A stretch of 64,000 bases of DNA. Origin: Spirochaetales bacterium. Lineage in GTDB: Bacteria > Spirochaetota > Spirochaetia > SZUA-6 > RPPD01. Below, one piece after another: positions 2-46,007 of this stretch. Every line of letters starts with the position of its first letter. Position 1 is the stretch's first letter. A model generated the notes under the pieces. The model was not told where the DNA came from. It ran no database searches and saw only the letters and a list, made by a program, of their open reading frames with translations. The stretch covers positions 401 to 64,400 of the forward strand of contig JAFGJO010000055.1 in NCBI GenBank assembly GCA_016929065.1. Direction: 5' to 3'. Both the position numbers and the translations under genes were made by a program.

Positions 2-286
2 GTGCAAAGAGAACCCACTACACCGGGAGAAATACTATTAGAAGAGTTTTTAACCCCACTAGGAATAACGCAAAAACAATTAGCAGTGCATATTGGCTGC
101 GATGTAAAGGTAATTAATCGCATCATCAACGGCAGAACCTCTGTAACAGCCGAGATGGCTTTAAAGTTAGCCAACACTTTTAGTACTACACCTCAATTTT
201 GGCTAAATGCTCAACAGGCAGTAGATATTTATAAAGCATCCCGAAAGATAGAACATCTACCAGAGCCATTTATAAAAGCTAGCTAA
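2..286 (+). CDS. higA: HigA-family XRE helix-turn-helix antitoxin (5' end probably truncated by window edge)
   Basis: Resembles the HigA at 18015-18314 (shared motifs IYPGEIL-EEF, SPDFWLG/TPQFWLN). No partner toxin inside the window. Confidence 0.7.
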   Translation: MQREPTTPGEILLEEFLTPLGITQKQLAVHIGCDVKVINRIINGRTSVTAEMALKLANTFSTTPQFWLNAQQAVDIYKASRKIEHLPEPFIKAS

Positions 287-641
287 ATAGAACAAAACTT
301 TACATATTTACTTATTATCATAAAATGATATAAGGAGAAATTATAAGCAATGAGTTATTGTCAAATGTTGTGGATTGGAATTAGGGGCTGTTTTCTGAAT
401 GTATAAACGATGAATATATTAAGAAAGAATACTTCACTTTGAACAGTTTCTTTTGTAATAAATTTATTATCATCACGATGTTATTTGTGTTTTCTTGTGA
501 TTTTTTATCGGAAAACAGCAATCATTCACGGGTTACTATTCGGCTTGAAAATGGAACAAACGCCAGAGCTGTGGTCGCAAATCCTGACGGTACCGGGGTA
601 ACCGGATTTGAGCAGTACGTTGAGTCCGCGAACTGTTTCGG

Positions 642-761
642 CTGCTTCGGTCAGGATTGACTGTCCAACTTTTCACACTCTCGACTGCTTCGGGTGATTG
701 AATTATCGTCCTGTTATTGATATACTAAATTTTTCCAATTCAGGAAATATTTTCTCCCGGA
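642..761 (+). repeat. Copy 1 of a 120-bp direct repeat (5 mismatches versus copy 2 at 3311-3430)
   Basis: Direct base-by-base comparison of the two stretches. Contains an internal 'ctgcttcgg' direct repeat. Confidence 0.9.
698..726 (+). promoter_or_regulatory. Sigma70-like promoter inside repeat copy 1
   Basis: -35 TTGAAT (698-703), 17-nt spacer, extended -10 TGaTATACT (718-726). Would read into the 1257 gene through a ~500-nt leader. Confidence 0.4.
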
Positions 762-833
762 CCATCCCGCACCCTGCACCCTCCGGACACACACGCTCGA
801 ACCGGTGCTGACACAAGCGGCTGCACGCCTTGA

Positions 834-1133
834 TCATATTCCTGTATAGGTATACTCCCCGGAATAACGAAAACTGCAGTCAACGCCGTTAACAATGAAC
901 TCGCCTTCGATCCCAACTGATTCTCCGGGGACAGAAGAAATAGTGACACTGAGTGTGGCGCTGTCTTGAGGCACAATTGCGTCTTGACCAAGCGGAAAAT
1001 TCCACAATATTCTGAAAAATCCTGAATCGGCGACAGCTGTCCATGTACCCACGGGTACTTGATTAAAAGTTTGTGTTGGATCCCCCTGGCTGTCGAACAT
1101 GAGTTCAACGTAATATCCAGTACCTGTTTCCAT
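834..1133 (-). CDS. Hypothetical 99-aa protein
   Basis: ORF only. No convincing RBS. Lies between repeat copy 1 and the start of the 1257 gene. Confidence 0.2.
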   Translation of the reverse strand: METGTGYYVELMFDSQGDPTQTFNQVPVGTWTAVADSGFFRILWNFPLGQDAIVPQDSATLSVTISSVPGESVGIEGEFIVNGVDCSFRYSGEYTYTGI

Positions 1134-1256
1134 GGGTAACGGTCATAATCAAATATCAATTTTCTGATTGCATAATGGACGGTTTTCAACATAATTGACG
1201 GTGCGGAACATGTTTTTAACATTCTGTCAGTTCCGGTAAGCAAAAAGGAGGAAAAT

Positions 1257-3173
1257 ATGATAAAAGTTCGTTTGCAGGGAGGAGCTCTCTTTGGTTTGTT
1301 TTTCACAATACTCATGATTGTCCCCGGCGTACTGGCATCAGGTCAGCTCAGTGTGGTGACCAGTGACAGAACTCAGGTAAAAGACAAGGACACGATCACC
1401 CCGATTGGTTTTCAGGGGATCCTGCTTATTTCCAGTCCTGAGTACCGTGTCATCACAGTGAAGAACGAGGGCACAGCGGTTGTAATCAATAAAATATCCA
1501 TTGAAGGCGATCCAGATTTTACTGTCAACACCGCGGATTCGGGGCTTAATCTCTGGGAGAAAAAACCGCTTGCGGCAGATAACGTTCTGCTGGACACCGG
1601 CAAGTCATTCGACTTTCATCTGGATTTTTGTCCGGTTTCGGGCGGCGACAGATCGGCCGTCATTACTATCGCGTATGATTCGGGAAAAACCTTTATGTTC
1701 ACCGTCAAGGGCAGGGGCCGGCCGGAATCAATCAAGGGGTTCACGCACGGCTCTGAAATCATGGACAAGATATGGGGCGGATACAATAAAAACCAGGACG
1801 AGCGGCCGGCTGGCATGGTCGCGGATAGCTCGGGAAACATATATTTTTCCGGGAATGGAAAATACATTTCCTCGGACACCTTTTATTACGACATTTTCGT
1901 CGGAAAAATCAACGCGGATCAGACACTGGGCTGGCAGATGGTCTATCATTCCAAATTTAATGACCGGTTTCCTGATCCAAGCCAGAATGACGAGTCCGGC
2001 GGAAGTGCGAACACGATCTGTATGGATGAAAAGGGTTTTCTCTATATTGCGGCAAGTGTGGGAAACAATTCCAACAATTCGTATCTGGCTATGGTGATGA
2101 AGATCAATCCGAAGGACGGGAAAGAGGTATGGAGAAAATACTGGGTTTCCAATACCACACGTCTGAAGTACACGGATTCATCGGAAGTGTATGCTCTTGC
2201 GGTGTCTGACAACATGGTTTTCATTACCGGGGAAGGATTTGATTATGATACGTCAACCCAGGGTATCTTTGTCACTGCCCTTTCTGCCGAGGACGGCAGT
2301 CAGAAATGGAGCCGTATTATCAATCCCAACAGCAATAAGTACAAAGACAAAGGGTATGCGATCAAGGCGGACGGGAAGGGAAATCTCTTTGTCGCCGGCT
2401 GGCAGGGGGAAAGCACCGGTTCGCCATTTCTGTGCAAGCTTGCCGACATTACCTCAAAGCCGAACCTGAGTTGGGCGGTCAATTTCAGTATGGGCACTGG
2501 CTGTAATTTCAATGCCATCGATATCGACGAGTCGGGCAATGTGTATCTCTCCGCGGACAGGCGCGGCGCTGCGACCTTTTTCTCGATTATAAAAGTCAGC
2601 GCTGATGGAAAACAGATAACGGGCAAGACATTTCCCGGAACTTCCGGTGGGAACAACAACGCAAAAATAGTCCGGGTAGCCGGCGATTCGGTATATGTAG
2701 GCGGCAGGATCGGTTTTTCAGGGCTCGACACGGGCCGTGGCGACGGCATGCTCCTGAAACTGAAGAACAGTGATTTGAGTCTCCAGTGGGCAGCGCTGTA
2801 TTTTACCGGGACAGGGCCGAAAGAGGTATGTTCTCATCATTTGAAGGGGATTGAGGTCGTAAACAATGAACTCTATCTCTACGGTGAAGTGTATACGGGA
2901 AACAGCAATAATTTCCGGTATTATGGTTACTGGTTTGATCTCCCCGGAGCACTGGAAGATTACGCACCGCAGAATACGGACGTCACCTCCAAAACTGTTT
3001 TTGCTCCGCTTGCAAAGTCAGGACTGGTAGACGGCACCACCAATGGAGGGATATACGAGCCGATCAGTTTGTCTGCCAACATTGAATTTCAGGATGCGAA
3101 TGCCAAAAACGAAAAAACCCACGGCAGTCAGGTGGATGGAGATGTCTTTTTTATGAAACTGAAGCTGAAATAA
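1257..3173 (+). CDS. Secreted beta-propeller repeat protein (SBBP-like repeats)
   Basis: RBS aaaaGGAGGaaaat before the ATG. N-terminal signal peptide. Recurring blade motifs GNIYFSG, GFLYIAASVG, MVFITGEG, GNLFVAGW, GNVYLSAD, SVYVGGRIGF, NELYLYGEV. Confidence 0.7.
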   Translation: MIKVRLQGGALFGLFFTILMIVPGVLASGQLSVVTSDRTQVKDKDTITPIGFQGILLISSPEYRVITVKNEGTAVVINKISIEGDPDFTVNTADSGLNLWEKKPLAADNVLLDTGKSFDFHLDFCPVSGGDRSAVITIAYDSGKTFMFTVKGRGRPESIKGFTHGSEIMDKIWGGYNKNQDERPAGMVADSSGNIYFSGNGKYISSDTFYYDIFVGKINADQTLGWQMVYHSKFNDRFPDPSQNDESGGSANTICMDEKGFLYIAASVGNNSNNSYLAMVMKINPKDGKEVWRKYWVSNTTRLKYTDSSEVYALAVSDNMVFITGEGFDYDTSTQGIFVTALSAEDGSQKWSRIINPNSNKYKDKGYAIKADGKGNLFVAGWQGESTGSPFLCKLADITSKPNLSWAVNFSMGTGCNFNAIDIDESGNVYLSADRRGAATFFSIIKVSADGKQITGKTFPGTSGGNNNAKIVRVAGDSVYVGGRIGFSGLDTGRGDGMLLKLKNSDLSLQWAALYFTGTGPKEVCSHHLKGIEVVNNELYLYGEVYTGNSNNFRYYGYWFDLPGALEDYAPQNTDVTSKTVFAPLAKSGLVDGTTNGGIYEPISLSANIEFQDANAKNEKTHGSQVDGDVFFMKLKLK

Positions 3174-3193
3174 TTTGTATGGCACTGCCAATT

Positions 3194-3226
3194 AAACCGC
3201 CTTTGACATCAAGGGCGGTTTTTTAT
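3194..3226 (+). terminator. Rho-independent terminator after the beta-propeller gene
   Basis: accgccttt-gacatc-aagggcggt stem-loop followed by a T-run. Confidence 0.6.
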
Positions 3227-3310
3227 ATGTATTGCAGATTCAGGTTTACAGGACATTCACCAAATGACTGTATTATGTCAGGTTGCGCGTGCATGATAGC
3301 GAGGTCGCGG

Positions 3311-3430
3311 CTGCATCGGTCAGGATTGACTGTCCAACTTTTTACACTCTCGACTGCTTCGGGCGATTGAATTATCGTCCAGTTATTGATATACTAACTT
3401 TTTCCAATTCAGGAAATATTTTCTCCCGGA
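3311..3430 (+). repeat. Copy 2 of the 120-bp direct repeat, ending 6 nt before the start of the 3437 gene
   Basis: About 96% identical to 642-761. Followed directly by GGAGG and ATG. Confidence 0.9.
3367..3395 (+). promoter_or_regulatory. Sigma70-like promoter inside repeat copy 2, driving the 3437 gene
   Basis: -35 TTGAAT, 17-nt spacer, TGaTATACT. Predicted leader about 35 nt. Confidence 0.45.
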
Positions 3431-3436
3431 GGAACA

Positions 3437-3940
3437 ATGAGTCTGCTCGATAATAATACGATTGAAATAAAGGATTATTCCCACAGGGAAGGCTGGCTGG
3501 TGGTGTTGATCTTCTTTCTTGTCGTGCTGCATCCGTTTGCACATCTGTATGTAATATGGGGCCGCTTTGAAAGCCTTCCCCGGGTTTTTTCACAATTCAG
3601 TACAGAACCTCTTAATATTTTATTGTATATAGGAATCCTTGTTATTGTGGCGGGTACCATTATCCTCTCGGTTGTTTCCGGGATCTTGTTATGGAAAAAA
3701 AAGCGGCTGGGTGTGTTGCTGACAAAAATCTTTCTTGTCATCAGTGTTGCAGTGGGGTTGACGAATGTTCCCGATTTTCTGGCAAATGCTCAGTCAATCG
3801 AGTTTATGACCGCAGTGCAGTATCTGATCCGGCTGGGAGTGAATGCAGTGGTCGTTCCCGTGGCATGGTTTTTATATCTTTTGTTTTCGAAACGGGTAAA
3901 GACCATCTATTTCAATAACAGCGAATCAAACTCAAAATAA
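3437..3940 (+). CDS. Hypothetical integral membrane protein (about 4 TM)
   Basis: Strong RBS. Hydrophobic helices. Confidence 0.6.
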   Translation: MSLLDNNTIEIKDYSHREGWLVVLIFFLVVLHPFAHLYVIWGRFESLPRVFSQFSTEPLNILLYIGILVIVAGTIILSVVSGILLWKKKRLGVLLTKIFLVISVAVGLTNVPDFLANAQSIEFMTAVQYLIRLGVNAVVVPVAWFLYLLFSKRVKTIYFNNSESNSK

Positions 3941-3950
3941 GGAATTTTTT

Positions 3951-4712
3951 ATGCGGGAATTTGAAAAGCCATACAGTTTTCTCCGCTCAATCGGAATTTA
4001 TTTTATCATTGTCTTCCGGCAGCTGCCGGTATTTTTACTGAGTTTTTTCATGTTTGTTATTATTCCATCCGGATTGCTGTATGCGGCATTTTATTTTTTC
4101 CCCGAACTGTTTCGGGACCGATATCTGGTGCTTGCCGGAGTCCAGGCACTGCTGGTATTTTTCTTTTTTGAATTCAGCGGCATGTGCAGGGAGAGCATTG
4201 ATGGCAAATCGTACAGGATTTTTTCCGGATTCGGAAAAAATATTTTTTCGGTATTGTCTGCCGCGGTCATTACCTTCGCGTTCAGCGTGACGATTCAGGC
4301 CCTGAGTGAAATTCTTGCTGCATTGATGCCGAATTTTGAATTCTCGGACATGATCATTATCATCATCACCAAACTGTTTTTTCTTGTGCTGCCGGCCGCA
4401 GTGTATGCAATTTCCCGGAAGAATGATTTAAAGAGTTCTTTCGGGATTGCGGTGAAATTCCTGCGTGAGAATCTGGGAAAAGTAATGCTTCTTGGAGTGG
4501 TAATTCTTATTTTGTCGGTTTTTGGGGCGGGTGTTATTGTCGGTGTGCTGCGCCTTCAATTGCCGGATATCGGCGACAACACCAGACTGATTCTTATATT
4601 TTTAATCGGCCACTTTTTCACTGCTTTTTTGCATCCGGTGATGGCTGTCACGTTTGTAAAAGTATCCCAATATGAAGATATTGAATTAAAAGACCCGCTG
4701 ATAAAAGAATAA
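3951..4712 (+). CDS. Hypothetical polytopic membrane protein
   Basis: Several hydrophobic segments. Starts 10 bp after the previous gene. Confidence 0.6.
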   Translation: MREFEKPYSFLRSIGIYFIIVFRQLPVFLLSFFMFVIIPSGLLYAAFYFFPELFRDRYLVLAGVQALLVFFFFEFSGMCRESIDGKSYRIFSGFGKNIFSVLSAAVITFAFSVTIQALSEILAALMPNFEFSDMIIIIITKLFFLVLPAAVYAISRKNDLKSSFGIAVKFLRENLGKVMLLGVVILILSVFGAGVIVGVLRLQLPDIGDNTRLILIFLIGHFFTAFLHPVMAVTFVKVSQYEDIELKDPLIKE

Positions 4713-8428: not shown

Positions 8429-8511
8429 GTTATTCCTCTTTCCATAGTATAGAAGAGAGATTGTGCGGATTCAAACGAAAAACAGGATATGTTTAAAATA
8501 AACAGGGTAAT

Positions 8512-16130: not shown

Positions 16131-16159
16131 TTGACATATCACTAAATTATCATTATTTT
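16131..16159 (+). promoter_or_regulatory. Putative sigma70 promoter of the phd-relE module
   Basis: TTGACA, 17 nt, TATTTT. RBS gagagg follows. Confidence 0.3.
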
Positions 16160-16181
16160 GATATTGAATGAGAGGTTGTTA

Positions 16182-16448
16182 ATGCCCAAAATAAGGCCGA
16201 TTTCAGATTTACGGAACAATTTTACACAGTTATCAAAAAGTCTCCACGAAGAGAATGAGCCGATTTTCCTCACAAGAAATGGTGTCGGTGACATAGTTGT
16301 TATGAGTATTTCATACTATGAGAAATTATTAGCCAAATACGAGGTTTATCAAAAATTAGATGCTGCAGAAACTGAAATTAAAGATGGGGCACTTGGAAAA
16401 GATTATAAAAGCGTAATTAGAAAAGCCAAAGCAAAAATTAATGCCTAA
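16182..16448 (+). CDS. Phd/YefM-family antitoxin
   Basis: MPKIRPISDLRNNFTQL... resembles YefM. Overlaps the downstream toxin by 8 nt. Confidence 0.8.
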   Translation: MPKIRPISDLRNNFTQLSKSLHEENEPIFLTRNGVGDIVVMSISYYEKLLAKYEVYQKLDAAETEIKDGALGKDYKSVIRKAKAKINA

Positions 16449-16749
16449 GAAAAAATATTCAGTTTTGATTTATCCACTTGCAGAGCAAGATATGGATGAG
16501 ATCATATTGTTTCTAAAAGAACTTTCATTGAAAGGGGCCAATGCTTTTTTAGATAAACTATCATCAAAACTGAACAAGCTTGAAGAATATCCAGAAATGT
16601 TTCCCCTCGTTAAGGATGAAAGACTTTCTGAAAAAGGATATAGAATAATTCCAGTTGATAATTACATCGTGTTCTACGTAGTAATGAAAAAAAATGTACA
16701 AGTCAGAAGGATGATTTATGGAAAAAGAAATTATTTCGATTTCCTGTAA
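16441..16749 (+). CDS. RelE/ParE-family toxin
   Basis: About 100 aa with a typical ParE/RelE C-terminal pattern. Coupled to the Phd gene. Confidence 0.8.
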   Translation: MPKKKYSVLIYPLAEQDMDEIILFLKELSLKGANAFLDKLSSKLNKLEEYPEMFPLVKDERLSEKGYRIIPVDNYIVFYVVMKKNVQVRRMIYGKRNYFDFL

Positions 16750-16830
16750 ATCTGCTGAGCACTATTGCGCCAAACGGGAAGCGCCAGGCTCTCGAAGCAT
16801 AACGCTGCTTGATGTTTAATAACCAATAAA

Positions 16831-16873
16831 AAAAACCGTCTGTGTACTTGAAAGCACAGGCGGCTTTTTATTG
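16831..16873. terminator. Bidirectional terminator between convergent toxin-antitoxin modules
   Basis: aaaaaaaaccgtctgtg-tacttgaaag-cacaggcggcttttt. Confidence 0.55.
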
Positions 16874-16919
16874 TCAGCGCAGCGTCAAGGCTTCTATTCG
16901 TTGGGTGAAGTGCGCTGAT

Positions 16920-17312
16920 TCAAAGGAATTTCAATCCATGCTTTTTGTAAAGGTCCAAATTTTCATCCAGACTGAGTAATGTGAAATCATTTTGAATTGC
17001 TTGCCAAATAATTGCCCTATCAAATGGATCTTTGTGTTCTATGGGAAGCTTGTAAAATGAAATAAGCTCTTGATTCTCATTTTTTTTGCAAACAAAAAAA
17101 CTATTTTCAACTTCATTGAAAAGTTGTTCTGGATTGATACCTTTAATATGAAGTTTCCCTATGCCGTATTTTATTGATATTTCCCATAAGCTAAATTGAC
17201 TATAATAAATTGTATGATCATTGTTTAAGAGAATCTTTTGGAATTTAGGTTTCAGCTTCTCAGGATTGGTAAAGGACCAAATCAAAATATGAGTATCGAC
17301 AATAAAATTCAT
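16920..17312 (-). CDS. vapC: PIN-domain VapC toxin
   Basis: N-terminal FIVDTHILIW PIN motif. About 130 aa. 4-nt overlap with the upstream antitoxin. Confidence 0.8.
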   Translation of the reverse strand: MNFIVDTHILIWSFTNPEKLKPKFQKILLNNDHTIYYSQFSLWEISIKYGIGKLHIKGINPEQLFNEVENSFFVCKKNENQELISFYKLPIEHKDPFDRAIIWQAIQNDFTLLSLDENLDLYKKHGLKFL

Positions 17313-17548
17313 GAAGTCAATAACTCGTCATCGGTAATAATGAAATCTTTGGAAAAGCTTACTTTTACCTTTCCCTTGAGGGATCCAAGTTTCCTGTTCT
17401 GGTTTTTCTTATATTCACTATAAGGAATAATGACGGCTATTGTTTCTTTTTTACGACCGAATGAAATAGCGATTTTATGTCCAGATTCAACTTCTTTTAA
17501 AAGAGAAGAAAGATGAGATTTTACTTCAGCAACCGGAATAGTTTTCAT
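17309..17548 (-). CDS. Phd/YefM-type antitoxin partner of VapC
   Basis: 79 aa. MKTIPVAEVKSHLSSLLKEV... Operonic. Confidence 0.75.
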   Translation of the reverse strand: MKTIPVAEVKSHLSSLLKEVESGHKIAISFGRKKETIAVIIPYSEYKKNQNRKLGSLKGKVKVSFSKDFIITDDELLTS

Positions 17549-17688
17549 ATGATAAAGTTAGCATAAGTGACCAACATAGTCAAGTATTATTTTCGGCCCC
17601 AGGAATTGCATACAACGTTCAGTGTTGGCGCCCGATCAGGGCGTGGAGGTTTACACAGTATTGAAGCTGCGGCGGGTAATAATAACGT

Positions 17689-17722
17689 TTGACAATACTA
17701 ACGTTAAGCAGTATTATACATT
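17689..17722 (+). promoter_or_regulatory. Promoter with overlapping palindromic operator for higBA (probably leaderless)
   Basis: TTGACA (17689-94), 17 nt, TATTAT (17712-17). Inverted repeat aatact..agtatt around the palindrome aacgtt. ATG at 17723. Confidence 0.45.
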
Positions 17723-18025
17723 ATGCTACAGTCTTTTCAAGATAAAGAAACGGAAAAGGTATGGAATCAAGAATACTCAAAAAAGTTACCAAGGGATATT
17801 CAAAGGGTTGGGTTAAGAAAACTGTTTATGCTGAACAGGGCAATAGATTTGGATGATTTGAAAATACCACCATCAAATTGCCTGGAAAAGTTGAAAGGCA
17901 ACAGGAAGGGGCAATTTAGTATCAGAATTAACCAGCAATGGCGAATATGTTTTAATTGGAAGGACGGGGAAGCATACAAAGTTGAGATTGTAGACTATCA
18001 TCAGGAGGATTGTAATGAAAGATAA
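17723..18025 (+). CDS. higB: HigB toxin (RelE/ParE superfamily)
   Basis: KGNRKGQFSIRINQQWRICFNW motif. Confidence 0.8.
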   Translation: MLQSFQDKETEKVWNQEYSKKLPRDIQRVGLRKLFMLNRAIDLDDLKIPPSNCLEKLKGNRKGQFSIRINQQWRICFNWKDGEAYKVEIVDYHQEDCNER

Positions 18026-18314
18026 AATACCAAATATATATCCAGGAGAAATCCTCGAAGAAGAGTTTATAAAGCCGATGAATATATCAGCCTACAGGCT
18101 TGCTAAAGAAACACATTTACCCGCAACAAGAATATCAGAAATATTGCACAATAAGCGGAAGATTACAGCAGACACGGCTTTAAGATTTTCAAAATATTTT
18201 GGTAATAGTCCGGATTTCTGGCTAGGAATACAAATCGAGTATGATTTACGCGAAGAGATGGCAAAGAATAAAAAAGAAATTAATCAGATAAAGAAAATCG
18301 AAATAGCTGTTTAG
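18015..18314 (+). CDS. higA: HigA antitoxin (XRE helix-turn-helix)
   Basis: Overlaps higB by 11 nt. Helix-turn-helix. Confidence 0.85.
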   Translation: MKDKIPNIYPGEILEEEFIKPMNISAYRLAKETHLPATRISEILHNKRKITADTALRFSKYFGNSPDFWLGIQIEYDLREEMAKNKKEINQIKKIEIAV

Positions 18315-18382
18315 GAATTAATTCCGGCTATAATTTCAGATTACTCCTGGTATACCCACAACTCTTCAATTAAAAAACGAAT

Positions 18383-18622
18383 ATGGAGGTAAACTATGAG
18401 AAAAAACATTATGATTTTTCAAATGCAATAAAAAACCCTTATATAAATAAACTCAAGAAGCAAATATCTATTCGATTGGATAATGATATCTTGGAATATT
18501 TTAAAGAATTATCAGAGGAGATTGGTATCCCTTATCAAAAGTTAATAAACTTTTATCTTGCCGAATGTGCTAGTAAACGTATCAAACCAAAGCTTGTCTG
18601 GAATAATAATGCAAAGGCATGA
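18383..18622 (+). CDS. BrnA-like antitoxin, N-terminally short, with no BrnT partner
   Basis: KNPYINKLKKQISIRLDNDILEYFKELSEEIGIPYQKLINFYL matches the BrnA C-terminal region as I remember it. The GGAGG sits better for an 11-codon out-of-frame ATG at 18397. Confidence 0.55.
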   Translation: MEVNYEKKHYDFSNAIKNPYINKLKKQISIRLDNDILEYFKELSEEIGIPYQKLINFYLAECASKRIKPKLVWNNNAKA

Positions 18623-18639
18623 CATCTAACGGTTGAGAG

Positions 18640-18795
18640 TGAATCTAAAGCTACAGGATATCGATTCAAAAAACAAGACCATTACTGTCAGGCAGGGGAA
18701 AAGATATAAAGACAGGCAGATTGTTTTTTCCGATACGCTGTATGGTATTCTGAAAGAGTACTACCGTATAGCCTCATTGAATCGGCAAAATTAAA
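18640..18795 (+). pseudogene. Tyrosine-recombinase (XerC/D, integrase) C-terminal fragment
   Basis: Translates to ...ITVRQGKRYKDRQIVFSDTLYGILKEYYR, a degraded copy of the recombinase GKGxKxRxVPL motif. 51 codons with no start. Confidence 0.4.
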
Positions 18796-45398: not shown

Positions 45399-45491
45399 TA
45401 ATGCATAAAACTGAAATACAAAAAAGTCAATGGGATAATATACTTTTGATTTTTCACCTGAATCATGGTAGACTGAGAACAGGAGAACATC

Positions 45492-46007
45492 ATGAGGAAG
45501 TTTAATTGTTTACTGATTTCAGTTTTTTTACTTTCAGCTGTGTATTGCTTCGCCGATGAAACTAAAGACCGTCTTGGAATCAAGGGCGAAAAAATATTGT
45601 ACAGTTTCAGGATTTATCATTCAGAGAAAATTATATCGATTGTGGAAACTGCCCGGAAAACTCTCGAATACAGATTTGGCAAACCAGGCGCTGTAGAACT
45701 TGTTTACCCCGCGGTGTATAAAAAAGATGAAACAGTCTTTACGCTTCGCTGGTATATGCGGCCCGGCCTGGGCGGAACAAATATGGGAATGACCCGGCTC
45801 CGGTTTGAGTTTTTCAACAATGGATACAAATACAGAGTATATTTTGATGACTATGACGAGGATAACAGTCAGCAGAGCGGCATAGAAATTTACAATCCCC
45901 AGGGGAAGCAGGTTGCGGATTTAAAGGGTTATGACGTGATCGGGTCGCTGCTGGTTTTAATGGACGATCACCGGGTTAACACGGTTTTAATGCCGGGCGG
46001 CGAGTAG
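45492..46007 (+). CDS. Hypothetical secreted protein
   Basis: Signal peptide. Confidence 0.5.
   Translation: MRKFNCLLISVFLLSAVYCFADETKDRLGIKGEKILYSFRIYHSEKIISIVETARKTLEYRFGKPGAVELVYPAVYKKDETVFTLRWYMRPGLGGTNMGMTRLRFEFFNNGYKYRVYFDDYDEDNSQQSGIEIYNPQGKQVADLKGYDVIGSLLVLMDDHRVNTVLMPGGE

Follow-up and report, generated by a model that had tools for sequence, protein, structure and literature searches.

A promoter-bearing direct repeat around a beta-propeller gene of a Spirochaetales bacterium: a possible scar of local rearrangement

Background

Why should the same promoter-bearing stretch of DNA stand twice, in direct orientation, on either side of a single secreted beta-propeller gene? The question is raised by a window of 64,000 nucleotides from a Spirochaetales bacterium (assembly GCA_016929065.1, contig JAFGJO010000055.1, positions 401 to 64,400 of the forward strand), which is the whole stretch of DNA analysed here and to whose first letter all window coordinates refer. 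The original prediction proposed two answers, either a duplicated regulatory cassette putting two genes under one regulator, or the footprint of a cassette insertion or recombination that captured the propeller gene. The second fits better, considering the sharp ends of the repeat and the position of its left-hand copy between a truncated open reading frame (ORF) and a truncated gene, and the shared regulator is unsupported. The explanation favoured here, which may well be the right one, is that a one-off illegitimate local rearrangement left an ectopic 123-bp duplicate of a native promoter 2.7 kb upstream of the original, in gene debris. The sharp junctions, the apparently native right-hand copy and the truncated genes at the left-hand copy together argue for an illegitimate local rearrangement and not for a site-specific or transpositional one.

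The repeat and its promoter-like site

The two copies of the repeat are located as follows:

639-761, plus strand: copy 1 of the repeat (taken as ectopic), with a -35 element at 698-703, TG at 718-719 and a -10 element at 721-726
3308-3430, plus strand: copy 2 of the repeat (taken as native), with a -35 element at 3367-3372, TG at 3387-3388 and a -10 element at 3390-3395

Each copy is 123 nt long and the two align without gaps, with 118 of the 123 positions identical (96 %; BLASTN E = 1e-53), while shuffled versions of the window gave no sub-block match to the repeat. The direct repeat predicted as 120 bp, about 96 % identical and with five differences, is therefore real and extends 3 nt further on its left side. 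The substitutions are found at positions 646 (T in copy 1, A in copy 2), 674 (C/T), 695 (T/C), 712 (T/A) and 729 (A/C), in copy 1 numbering. The repeat ends are sharp on both sides, gapped alignment of the flanks scoring at the level of shuffled sequence, and no homology was retrieved beyond the edges by gapped local alignment. The copies are separated by 2546 nt (762-3307), and one copy plus this segment constitutes a unit of 2669 bp.

This is the sole repeat of at least 35 nt within the window, and three sub-blocks searched with up to 3 mismatches allowed matched the two known copies alone. Exact patterns (a 21-mer, a 24-mer, a 25-mer and a 31-mer with one N) had no match in public genome, metagenome and viral contig collections, scans that would miss diverged copies and collections from which the source metagenome-assembled genome (MAG) is apparently absent. 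So far as these searches show, the repeat represents a one-off scar and not a regulatory family, an ordinary instance of a known process.

The predicted promoter elements, a -35 TTGAAT, a 17-nt spacer and TG-n-TATACT, are present in both copies (698-726 and 3367-3395), the TG being placed at -15/-14. The hexamers agree with the consensus at 9 of 12 positions in each copy, which is a consensus match only and a frequent one (16 sites of this grade found in 5 kb, against 9.5 expected). None of the five substitutions between the copies falls in the -35, the TG, the -10 or the 5' untranslated region (UTR). The internal ctgcttcgg repeat that had been pointed out is also there, in the form CTGCWTCGG, twice in each copy, the pair belonging to a stretch of about 44 nt that is duplicated in tandem within the repeat (642-684 and 685-729; a score as high as the observed one was obtained in 1 to 8 of 2000 shuffles). 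By this alignment, unit 642-684 looks like a degenerate form of the promoter unit 685-729.

A regulon for CTGCWTCGG was considered and rejected, as the two CTGCTTCGG sites found in the window outside the repeat are both within coding regions and their number equals the chance expectation.

Two other promoter-like sites of the same shape as that of the repeat were noticed in the window, a TTGAAT/TATACT pair directly 5' of a histidine-kinase gene (8446-8474, minus strand) and a second site at 45446-45474 (plus strand), 5' of the gene at 45492. Their elements are TTGAAT/TTGATT, 17 nt and TATACT/TAGACT, and they end just about 17 nt before the listed start codons, which suggests very short leaders or mis-set start codons.

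The right-hand copy and the DUF2569 operon

Copy 2 is directly followed by two genes:

3437-3940, plus strand: DUF2569 membrane-protein gene (Pfam DUF2569, E = 9e-7; coding score 0.16)
3951-4712, plus strand: gene for a 253-aa protein without Pfam match, hydrophobic and membrane-like by eye (coding score 0.13)

These genes are separated by only 10 nt and are therefore considered as an operon, of which copy 2, from its position, is to be read as the native promoter and 5' UTR. This assignment relies on its continuity with the ribosome-binding site of its own gene, whereas copy 1 runs into unrelated C-rich DNA. The final three bases of copy 2 open the GGAGG at 3428-3432, which precedes the ATG at 3437 (GGAGG-N4-ATG), in agreement with the claim that this copy abuts the ribosome-binding site of the membrane-protein gene. 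Its -10 element ends 41 nt 5' of the ATG, a workable distance to a gene provided with a ribosome-binding site. No relative of the DUF2569 protein other than itself was retrieved from a set of 5.8 billion proteins, and a search for syntenic relatives with the histidine kinase matched only unrelated kinase domains.

The left-hand copy and its surroundings

Copy 1 ends 6 nt short of the point where copy 2 meets its start codon, and neither a ribosome-binding site nor an ORF follows. Its surroundings are composed of the following features:

2-286, plus strand: HigA-like helix-turn-helix antitoxin gene (Pfam HTH_3, E = 6.6e-11), with an atypical coding score of -0.22
439-660, plus strand: orf73, an unannotated ORF of 73 codons with a lipoprotein-type signal (…MLFVFSC), present in the ORF list and uncalled by NCBI
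762-826, no strand assigned: C-rich spacer of unmatched origin, without homology to any locus compared (GC skew -0.16 to -0.18)
827-1133 (ORF 834-1133), minus strand: remnant of a lipoprotein gene, JW904_12775, 99 aa, recognised by phmmer and a family hidden Markov model (HMM)

On the left side, the last 22 nt of orf73, including its stop codon, lie within copy 1. Its coding score is -0.01, against 0.25 +/- 0.09 for real in-frame gene chunks, and none of the 222-nt in-frame chunks of real genes scores below 0; orf73 is probably a truncated gene fragment, to judge by this score.

On the right side, beyond the spacer, JW904_12775 is annotated by NCBI (MBN1525354.1) as an intact 99-aa hypothetical protein (834-1133, minus strand). 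A phmmer search of 1.84 billion representatives revealed a protein of 160 aa (P0039) that is 75 % identical, residues 4-99 of the remnant aligning to its residues 65-160, and three further lipoproteins of 165-172 aa align in the same way. On the HMM of the family, the remnant covers positions 69-167 of 168 (E = 2e-37). At the DNA level, it shares 81-82 % identity with intact genes in two loci of a Spirochaetaceae MAG (L007 and L008) and in one locus of the same sample, SRR13394437 (L009), over 827/831 to 1114/1116, and gapped local alignment with L009 extends the similarity to 820-1121. The signal peptide is missing, in-frame stops are found upstream, the C-terminal two-thirds are left, and the coding score is 0.00 against a mean of 0.23 bits per codon for the genes of the genome. 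JW904_12775 is thus most likely a pseudogene, the 5'-truncated remnant of a gene for a lipoprotein of about 160 aa.

The intact P0039 homologue in L009 (75 % amino-acid and 82 % nucleotide identity) adjoins a cellulase gene. More generally, this small lipoprotein family occurs in relatives as same-strand clusters beside a cellulase gene (L007 8737-9699, L008 701-2108, L009 2010-3047), and at least L009 harbours two diverged paralogues in tandem.

The idea that orf73 and the minus-strand remnant could be the halves of a single gene split by an inversion was rejected: orf73 gives no significant match to the lipoprotein family (family HMM; BLASTP finds signal-peptide similarity only), and the candidate inverted match that links the end of orf73 to the start of the remnant amounts to an insignificant 8-mer (34 of 500 shuffles reach it).

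The G+C content is 31-38 % over windows from about 1 to 600, against about 45 % in the neighbouring region. Together with the atypical codon usage of the HigA-like gene, this low content would fit an acquisition of DNA at the left border of the rearranged region.

The propeller gene and its relation to copy 1

The rest of the bracketed segment is mainly occupied by the propeller gene:

1134-1256, plus strand: upstream region of the propeller gene, with TTGACG-16-TAACAT at 1195-1222 and a Shine-Dalgarno sequence, AAGGAGG, at 1245-1251
1257-3173, plus strand: gene for the secreted beta-propeller protein, 638 aa, JW904_12780, compared through its orthologues and codon usage
3194-3231, plus strand: intrinsic terminator of the propeller gene, formed by a 12-bp stem (3194-3221, 6 GC pairs) and a T-run after it

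In its Pfam profile, the propeller protein displays weak PQQ_2 and Reg_prop matches only, PF06739 (SBBP) being found on some more distant homologues. The clean terminator attributed to its gene was recovered, with the stem and T-run listed above.

From copy 1, transcription had been expected to run through a 500-nt leader into this gene. The distance from the end of copy 1 to the propeller start codon is about 495 nt, for an expected untranslated leader of about 524 nt, and the -10 element of copy 1 is 530 nt away from this start, the next one on the plus strand, which is beyond a workable distance. Moreover, the leader is not the empty stretch that was assumed, and contains the minus-strand gene remnant (834-1133) and then the upstream region proper to the propeller gene. 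The RNA issued from copy 1 would be C-rich and G-poor over 600-1050 (GC skew -0.16 to -0.18), and untranslated RNA of this composition is a likely target of Rho. With all its elements intact, the promoter of copy 1 probably still fires; its predicted transcript would be untranslated and antisense to the remnant, and would reach the propeller gene only if escaping Rho. The control of two genes by one regulator is accordingly unsupported, in view of the gap, of the antisense C-rich remnant, and of the Shine-Dalgarno sequence and promoter-like site that the propeller gene owns. Part of this upstream region (1207-1235) is weakly conserved with the upstream region of one orthologue (L005; 8 of 500 shuffles). 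Co-regulation of the propeller and DUF2569 genes is a possible side effect and not a demonstrated design.

Orthologues of the propeller protein are present at 59-76 % identity in several spirochaete MAGs. The five examined (65-76 % identity; loci L003, L005, L006, L043 and L044) are each found in a different neighbourhood, next to dxs, an FHA-domain gene, an amidohydrolase gene and others, as a stand-alone gene for 636-638 aa with a short upstream region of its own. At these five loci, the lipoprotein remnant, DUF2569 and flanking direct repeats were all absent. Since the orthologues lack flanking repeats, the repeat does not belong to the propeller gene as part of a cassette. The codon usage of the propeller gene is also native (0.22 against the genome mean of 0.23 bits per codon). 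The proposal that a recombination had captured the propeller gene is thus partly right, a recombination being the better fit and the capture of the gene itself being at variance with its codon usage and with its repeat-free orthologues.

Among these loci, the L006 orthologue is frameshifted into ORFs of 96 and 537 aa, and the L043 orthologue is followed by a toxin-antitoxin pair.

Origin of the second copy

The favoured rearrangement could have proceeded in two steps, within decaying DNA next to a toxin-antitoxin gene. First, the block formed by the lipoprotein remnant, the propeller gene and the promoter would be duplicated in tandem, joining the promoter end (761) to the segment start (762) and bringing the promoter ahead of the segment's second copy. 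The redundant upstream copy of the segment would then be lost in a deletion that cut into the unrelated lipoprotein-type orf73 at 638/639. Duplication followed by deletion is the best-documented route, and the one we infer here. The 761|762 junction is in line with it, as the promoter end is joined to the segment start as in a tandem-duplication join; the second copy of the segment is absent, so that the later deletion must be assumed.

Several observations weigh against this explanation. The search for additional copies of the repeat spanned just 64 kb of the genome. A single genome does not allow the sequence and number of the events to be reconstructed, and neither the protein set nor the genome representatives contained a syntenic relative of the DUF2569 locus. 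Over 762-1256 on the plus strand, no intrinsic terminator is predicted, and read-through from copy 1 into the propeller gene is possible. Finally, the substitution-free promoter and 5' UTR hint at a constraint on copy 1, a hint that is not significant: with chance probabilities of about 0.55 and 0.22, the lack of substitutions is uninformative on selection.

In a second reading, copy 1 has been maintained for driving the propeller gene by way of the 524-nt leader, a selected promoter capture that we consider possible although rather unlikely. The propeller gene and the DUF2569 operon would then share a regulator, maybe one binding the CTGCWTCGG pair. The -35, TG, -10 and 5' UTR are all intact in copy 1, the absence of a terminator would leave the way open, the TTGAAT/TATACT pair 5' of the histidine-kinase gene suggests that this type of promoter may be in use here, and duplication is a documented route to promoter capture (PMC11111574). 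Against these arguments, the leader is long, untranslated, antisense to the remnant and C-rich, hence a likely Rho substrate; the propeller gene disposes of a proximal promoter-like site and Shine-Dalgarno sequence of its own; the conservation of the promoter elements is statistically meaningless; and the other CTGCTTCGG sites of the window are intragenic and at chance number.

It is improbable that the repeat is instead the footprint of an insertion, in which an ancestor with the order orf73, repeat, DUF2569 would have gained a 2669-bp circle (repeat, remnant and propeller gene) by a Campbell-type crossover within the repeat. Such an integration leaves direct repeats as long as the shared homology, the differing neighbourhoods of the propeller orthologues are compatible with a mobile gene, and the unitig graph at k=31, described below, is compatible with a circular form. 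The circle must however already have carried the repeat joined to both ends of the segment, which presupposes the arrangement to be explained. In addition, no recombinase, replication or other mobile-element gene was found in the bracketed segment (ORF list, Pfam), and both the native codon usage of the propeller gene and its repeat-free orthologues speak against this origin.

We give little credence to the repeat being one member of a dispersed family of small promoter-carrying repeats (MITE-like, for miniature inverted-repeat transposable element, Correia-like, or a portable module) with further copies elsewhere in the genome. With a size of 123 nt and an outward-reading promoter, it is similar to such elements (PMC3575422), and the portion of the genome inspected is 64 kb. 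It is nevertheless devoid of terminal inverted repeats, target-site duplication and hairpin, only two copies are present in these 64 kb, and the exact searches of genome, metagenome and viral collections, which would miss diverged copies, were empty. A related and very doubtful variant is that the 123-mer is a lineage-specific portable promoter module without terminal inverted repeats, supplying genes of the flexible genome with a promoter that already responds to a regulator, and that the 2669-bp unit may loop out as a circle and re-insert at any other copy.

A mis-phased assembly is similarly very improbable. The true structure would in this case be a chromosome with the order orf73, repeat, DUF2569, together with a distinct 2669-bp element, circular or in tandem, the two being threaded together through the longest exact stretch common to the two copies, a 32-mer (730-761 in copy 1). 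The Logan unitigs of the source sample (k=31, SRR13394437) break exactly at this 32-mer: one of them, L001, corresponds to window 732-3428 with 0 mismatches, starting and ending inside the shared 32-mer, and a second, L002, starts inside it at window 3401. From this pattern of breaks, all the junction k-mers exist in the raw reads; at k of 32 or less, both resolutions use identical k-mers, and in the k=31 graph the integrated order is indistinguishable from an empty site plus a 2669-bp circle. Conversely, k of at least 33 or 150-nt reads would phase the five mismatches with the unique flanks, assemblers of MAGs presumably finish at larger k, probably for this contig too, and the NCBI contig of 131,845 bp carries the integrated order. 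Of seven window proteins looked up by exact match, six are encoded on this contig, namely MBN1525354-57 (JW904_12775 to JW904_12790), MBN1525358 and MBN1525360, the seventh, orf73, being absent from the collection.

Other candidate identities of the repeat

Coding sequence, another identity envisaged for the repeat in the original prediction, does not account for it: it scores as non-coding in all six frames and its sole overlap is with the 22-nt tail of the unannotated ORF 439-660. A structured cis-regulatory RNA, riboswitch or small RNA was rejected, as Rfam gave no match, either to the repeat with E values up to 1 or anywhere in the window at the gathering score, and no stable RNA fold is predicted (z-scores +0.7 to -1.3). 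At the DNA level, no stable fold is predicted either for both strands of both copies (z-scores -0.3 to -1.1).

Neither terminal inverted repeats, at the ends of the repeat or of the bracketed segment, nor a target-site duplication at the repeat were found, and many copies are lacking, which sets it apart from a MITE or Correia-like element. The repeat shares with Correia, ERIC and REPIN-type repeats its short non-coding nature and its promoter-like site, and differs from them by the absence of terminal inverted repeats, target duplication, secondary structure and multi-copy spread. A template repeat/variable repeat pair of a diversity-generating retroelement was rejected because the mismatches are not adenine-specific and the repeat is non-coding. 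The copies are direct and the only candidate inverted match is the 8-mer mentioned above, which does not correspond to an invertible promoter or intragenic inverton. Similarly, attL/attR sites of an integrative element do not fit a bracketed segment made of a gene remnant and the propeller gene, without mobility gene.

Treponema denticola carries a chromosomal integron, and integron attC sites and cassette arrays resemble the present locus in that repeats of similar size enclose a segment as long as a gene, that the organism is a spirochaete and that toxin-antitoxin genes are close by. They differ from it by their hairpin-forming palindrome and their R'/R'' core pair, whereas the repeat has neither, is present in two copies and carries a promoter instead. 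An attC identity was consequently rejected, in the absence of a hairpin and of an array, with only two copies in 64 kb. Of the core sites, GTCCAAC is present in the repeat without a GTTRRRY partner on reading the sequence, and the only recombinase signal, in place of an integron integrase, is a 53-aa fragment at 18633-18794 among the ORFs scanned to about 21 kb.

Relation to known systems and significance

Promoter capture through tandem duplication by illegitimate recombination has been documented (PMC11111574, citing Anderson & Roth 1978 and Blount 2012). As in these cases, the promoter of a downstream gene is also found ahead of the segment, giving the order promoter, segment, promoter in direct orientation with a non-homologous join. 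Tandem-duplication capture leaves two copies of the segment, whereas a single propeller segment is present here, a deletion has to be assumed and the activation of the propeller gene is putative.

Near-identical upstream regions before unrelated genes are common in prokaryotes, with more than 4000 families, mostly pairs (PMC3575422). The pairs of putative mobile promoters described by Matus-Garcia, Nijveen & van Passel (2012) average 92 % identity and are defined by at least 80 % identity over at least 50 nt, in a stretch within -150 to -50 of both start codons (PMC3575422). The present pair is alike in being non-coding, 96 % identical over 123 nt, with unrelated flanks and without any known mobile element or Rfam family. 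It departs from the definition by its placement, since the -150 to -50 location does not hold for both genes (PMC3575422): copy 2 extends from -129 to -7 relative to the DUF2569 start, and copy 1 from -618 to -496 relative to the propeller start, without being directly upstream of any annotated gene.

Another comparison is offered by the Borrelia ospE/ospF/elp (erp) genes, for which an upstream homology box was reportedly described by Marconi et al. in 1996 (cited in PMC10016077). There also, a conserved upstream promoter region has become common to different genes of a spirochaete through recombination. The Borrelia box differs in being multi-copy, directly before many lipoprotein genes on cp32 prophage plasmids, whereas the present repeat has two copies, only one of them directly before a gene.

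Laboratory evolution offers good documentation of promoter capture by duplication, which has seldom been pinned down in wild genomes. If copy 1 drives the propeller gene, the locus would represent a natural and fixed case, in an uncultured spirochaete, of a promoter captured through local duplication, and would link a secreted beta-propeller protein with a membrane operon whose function is unknown. The analysis also has a corrective value, as the supposed leader includes a probable pseudogene remnant annotated by NCBI as a 99-aa protein. Moreover, through its direct repeats the 2669-bp unit is open to deletion or amplification by RecA-dependent recombination, and the region breaks in assemblies at k=31.

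Additional observations on toxin-antitoxin genes

Just 3' of the HigA-like gene, the site TTTACA-16-TAAAAT (299-326, 10 of 12 positions) is the top sigma-70-like match of the first 5 kb and is followed by AAGGAG and an ORF of 18 codons at 350-406 (MSYCQMLWIGIRGCFLNV). Further along the window, a type II toxin-antitoxin island (16158-18794) groups Phd/YefM with ParE, Phd with PIN (VapC-like) and HigB with a HigA-like antitoxin. It also holds an orphan BrnA/CopG-like antitoxin and ends in the 53-aa tyrosine recombinase fragment, which covers positions 42-87 of the 172 of PF00589.

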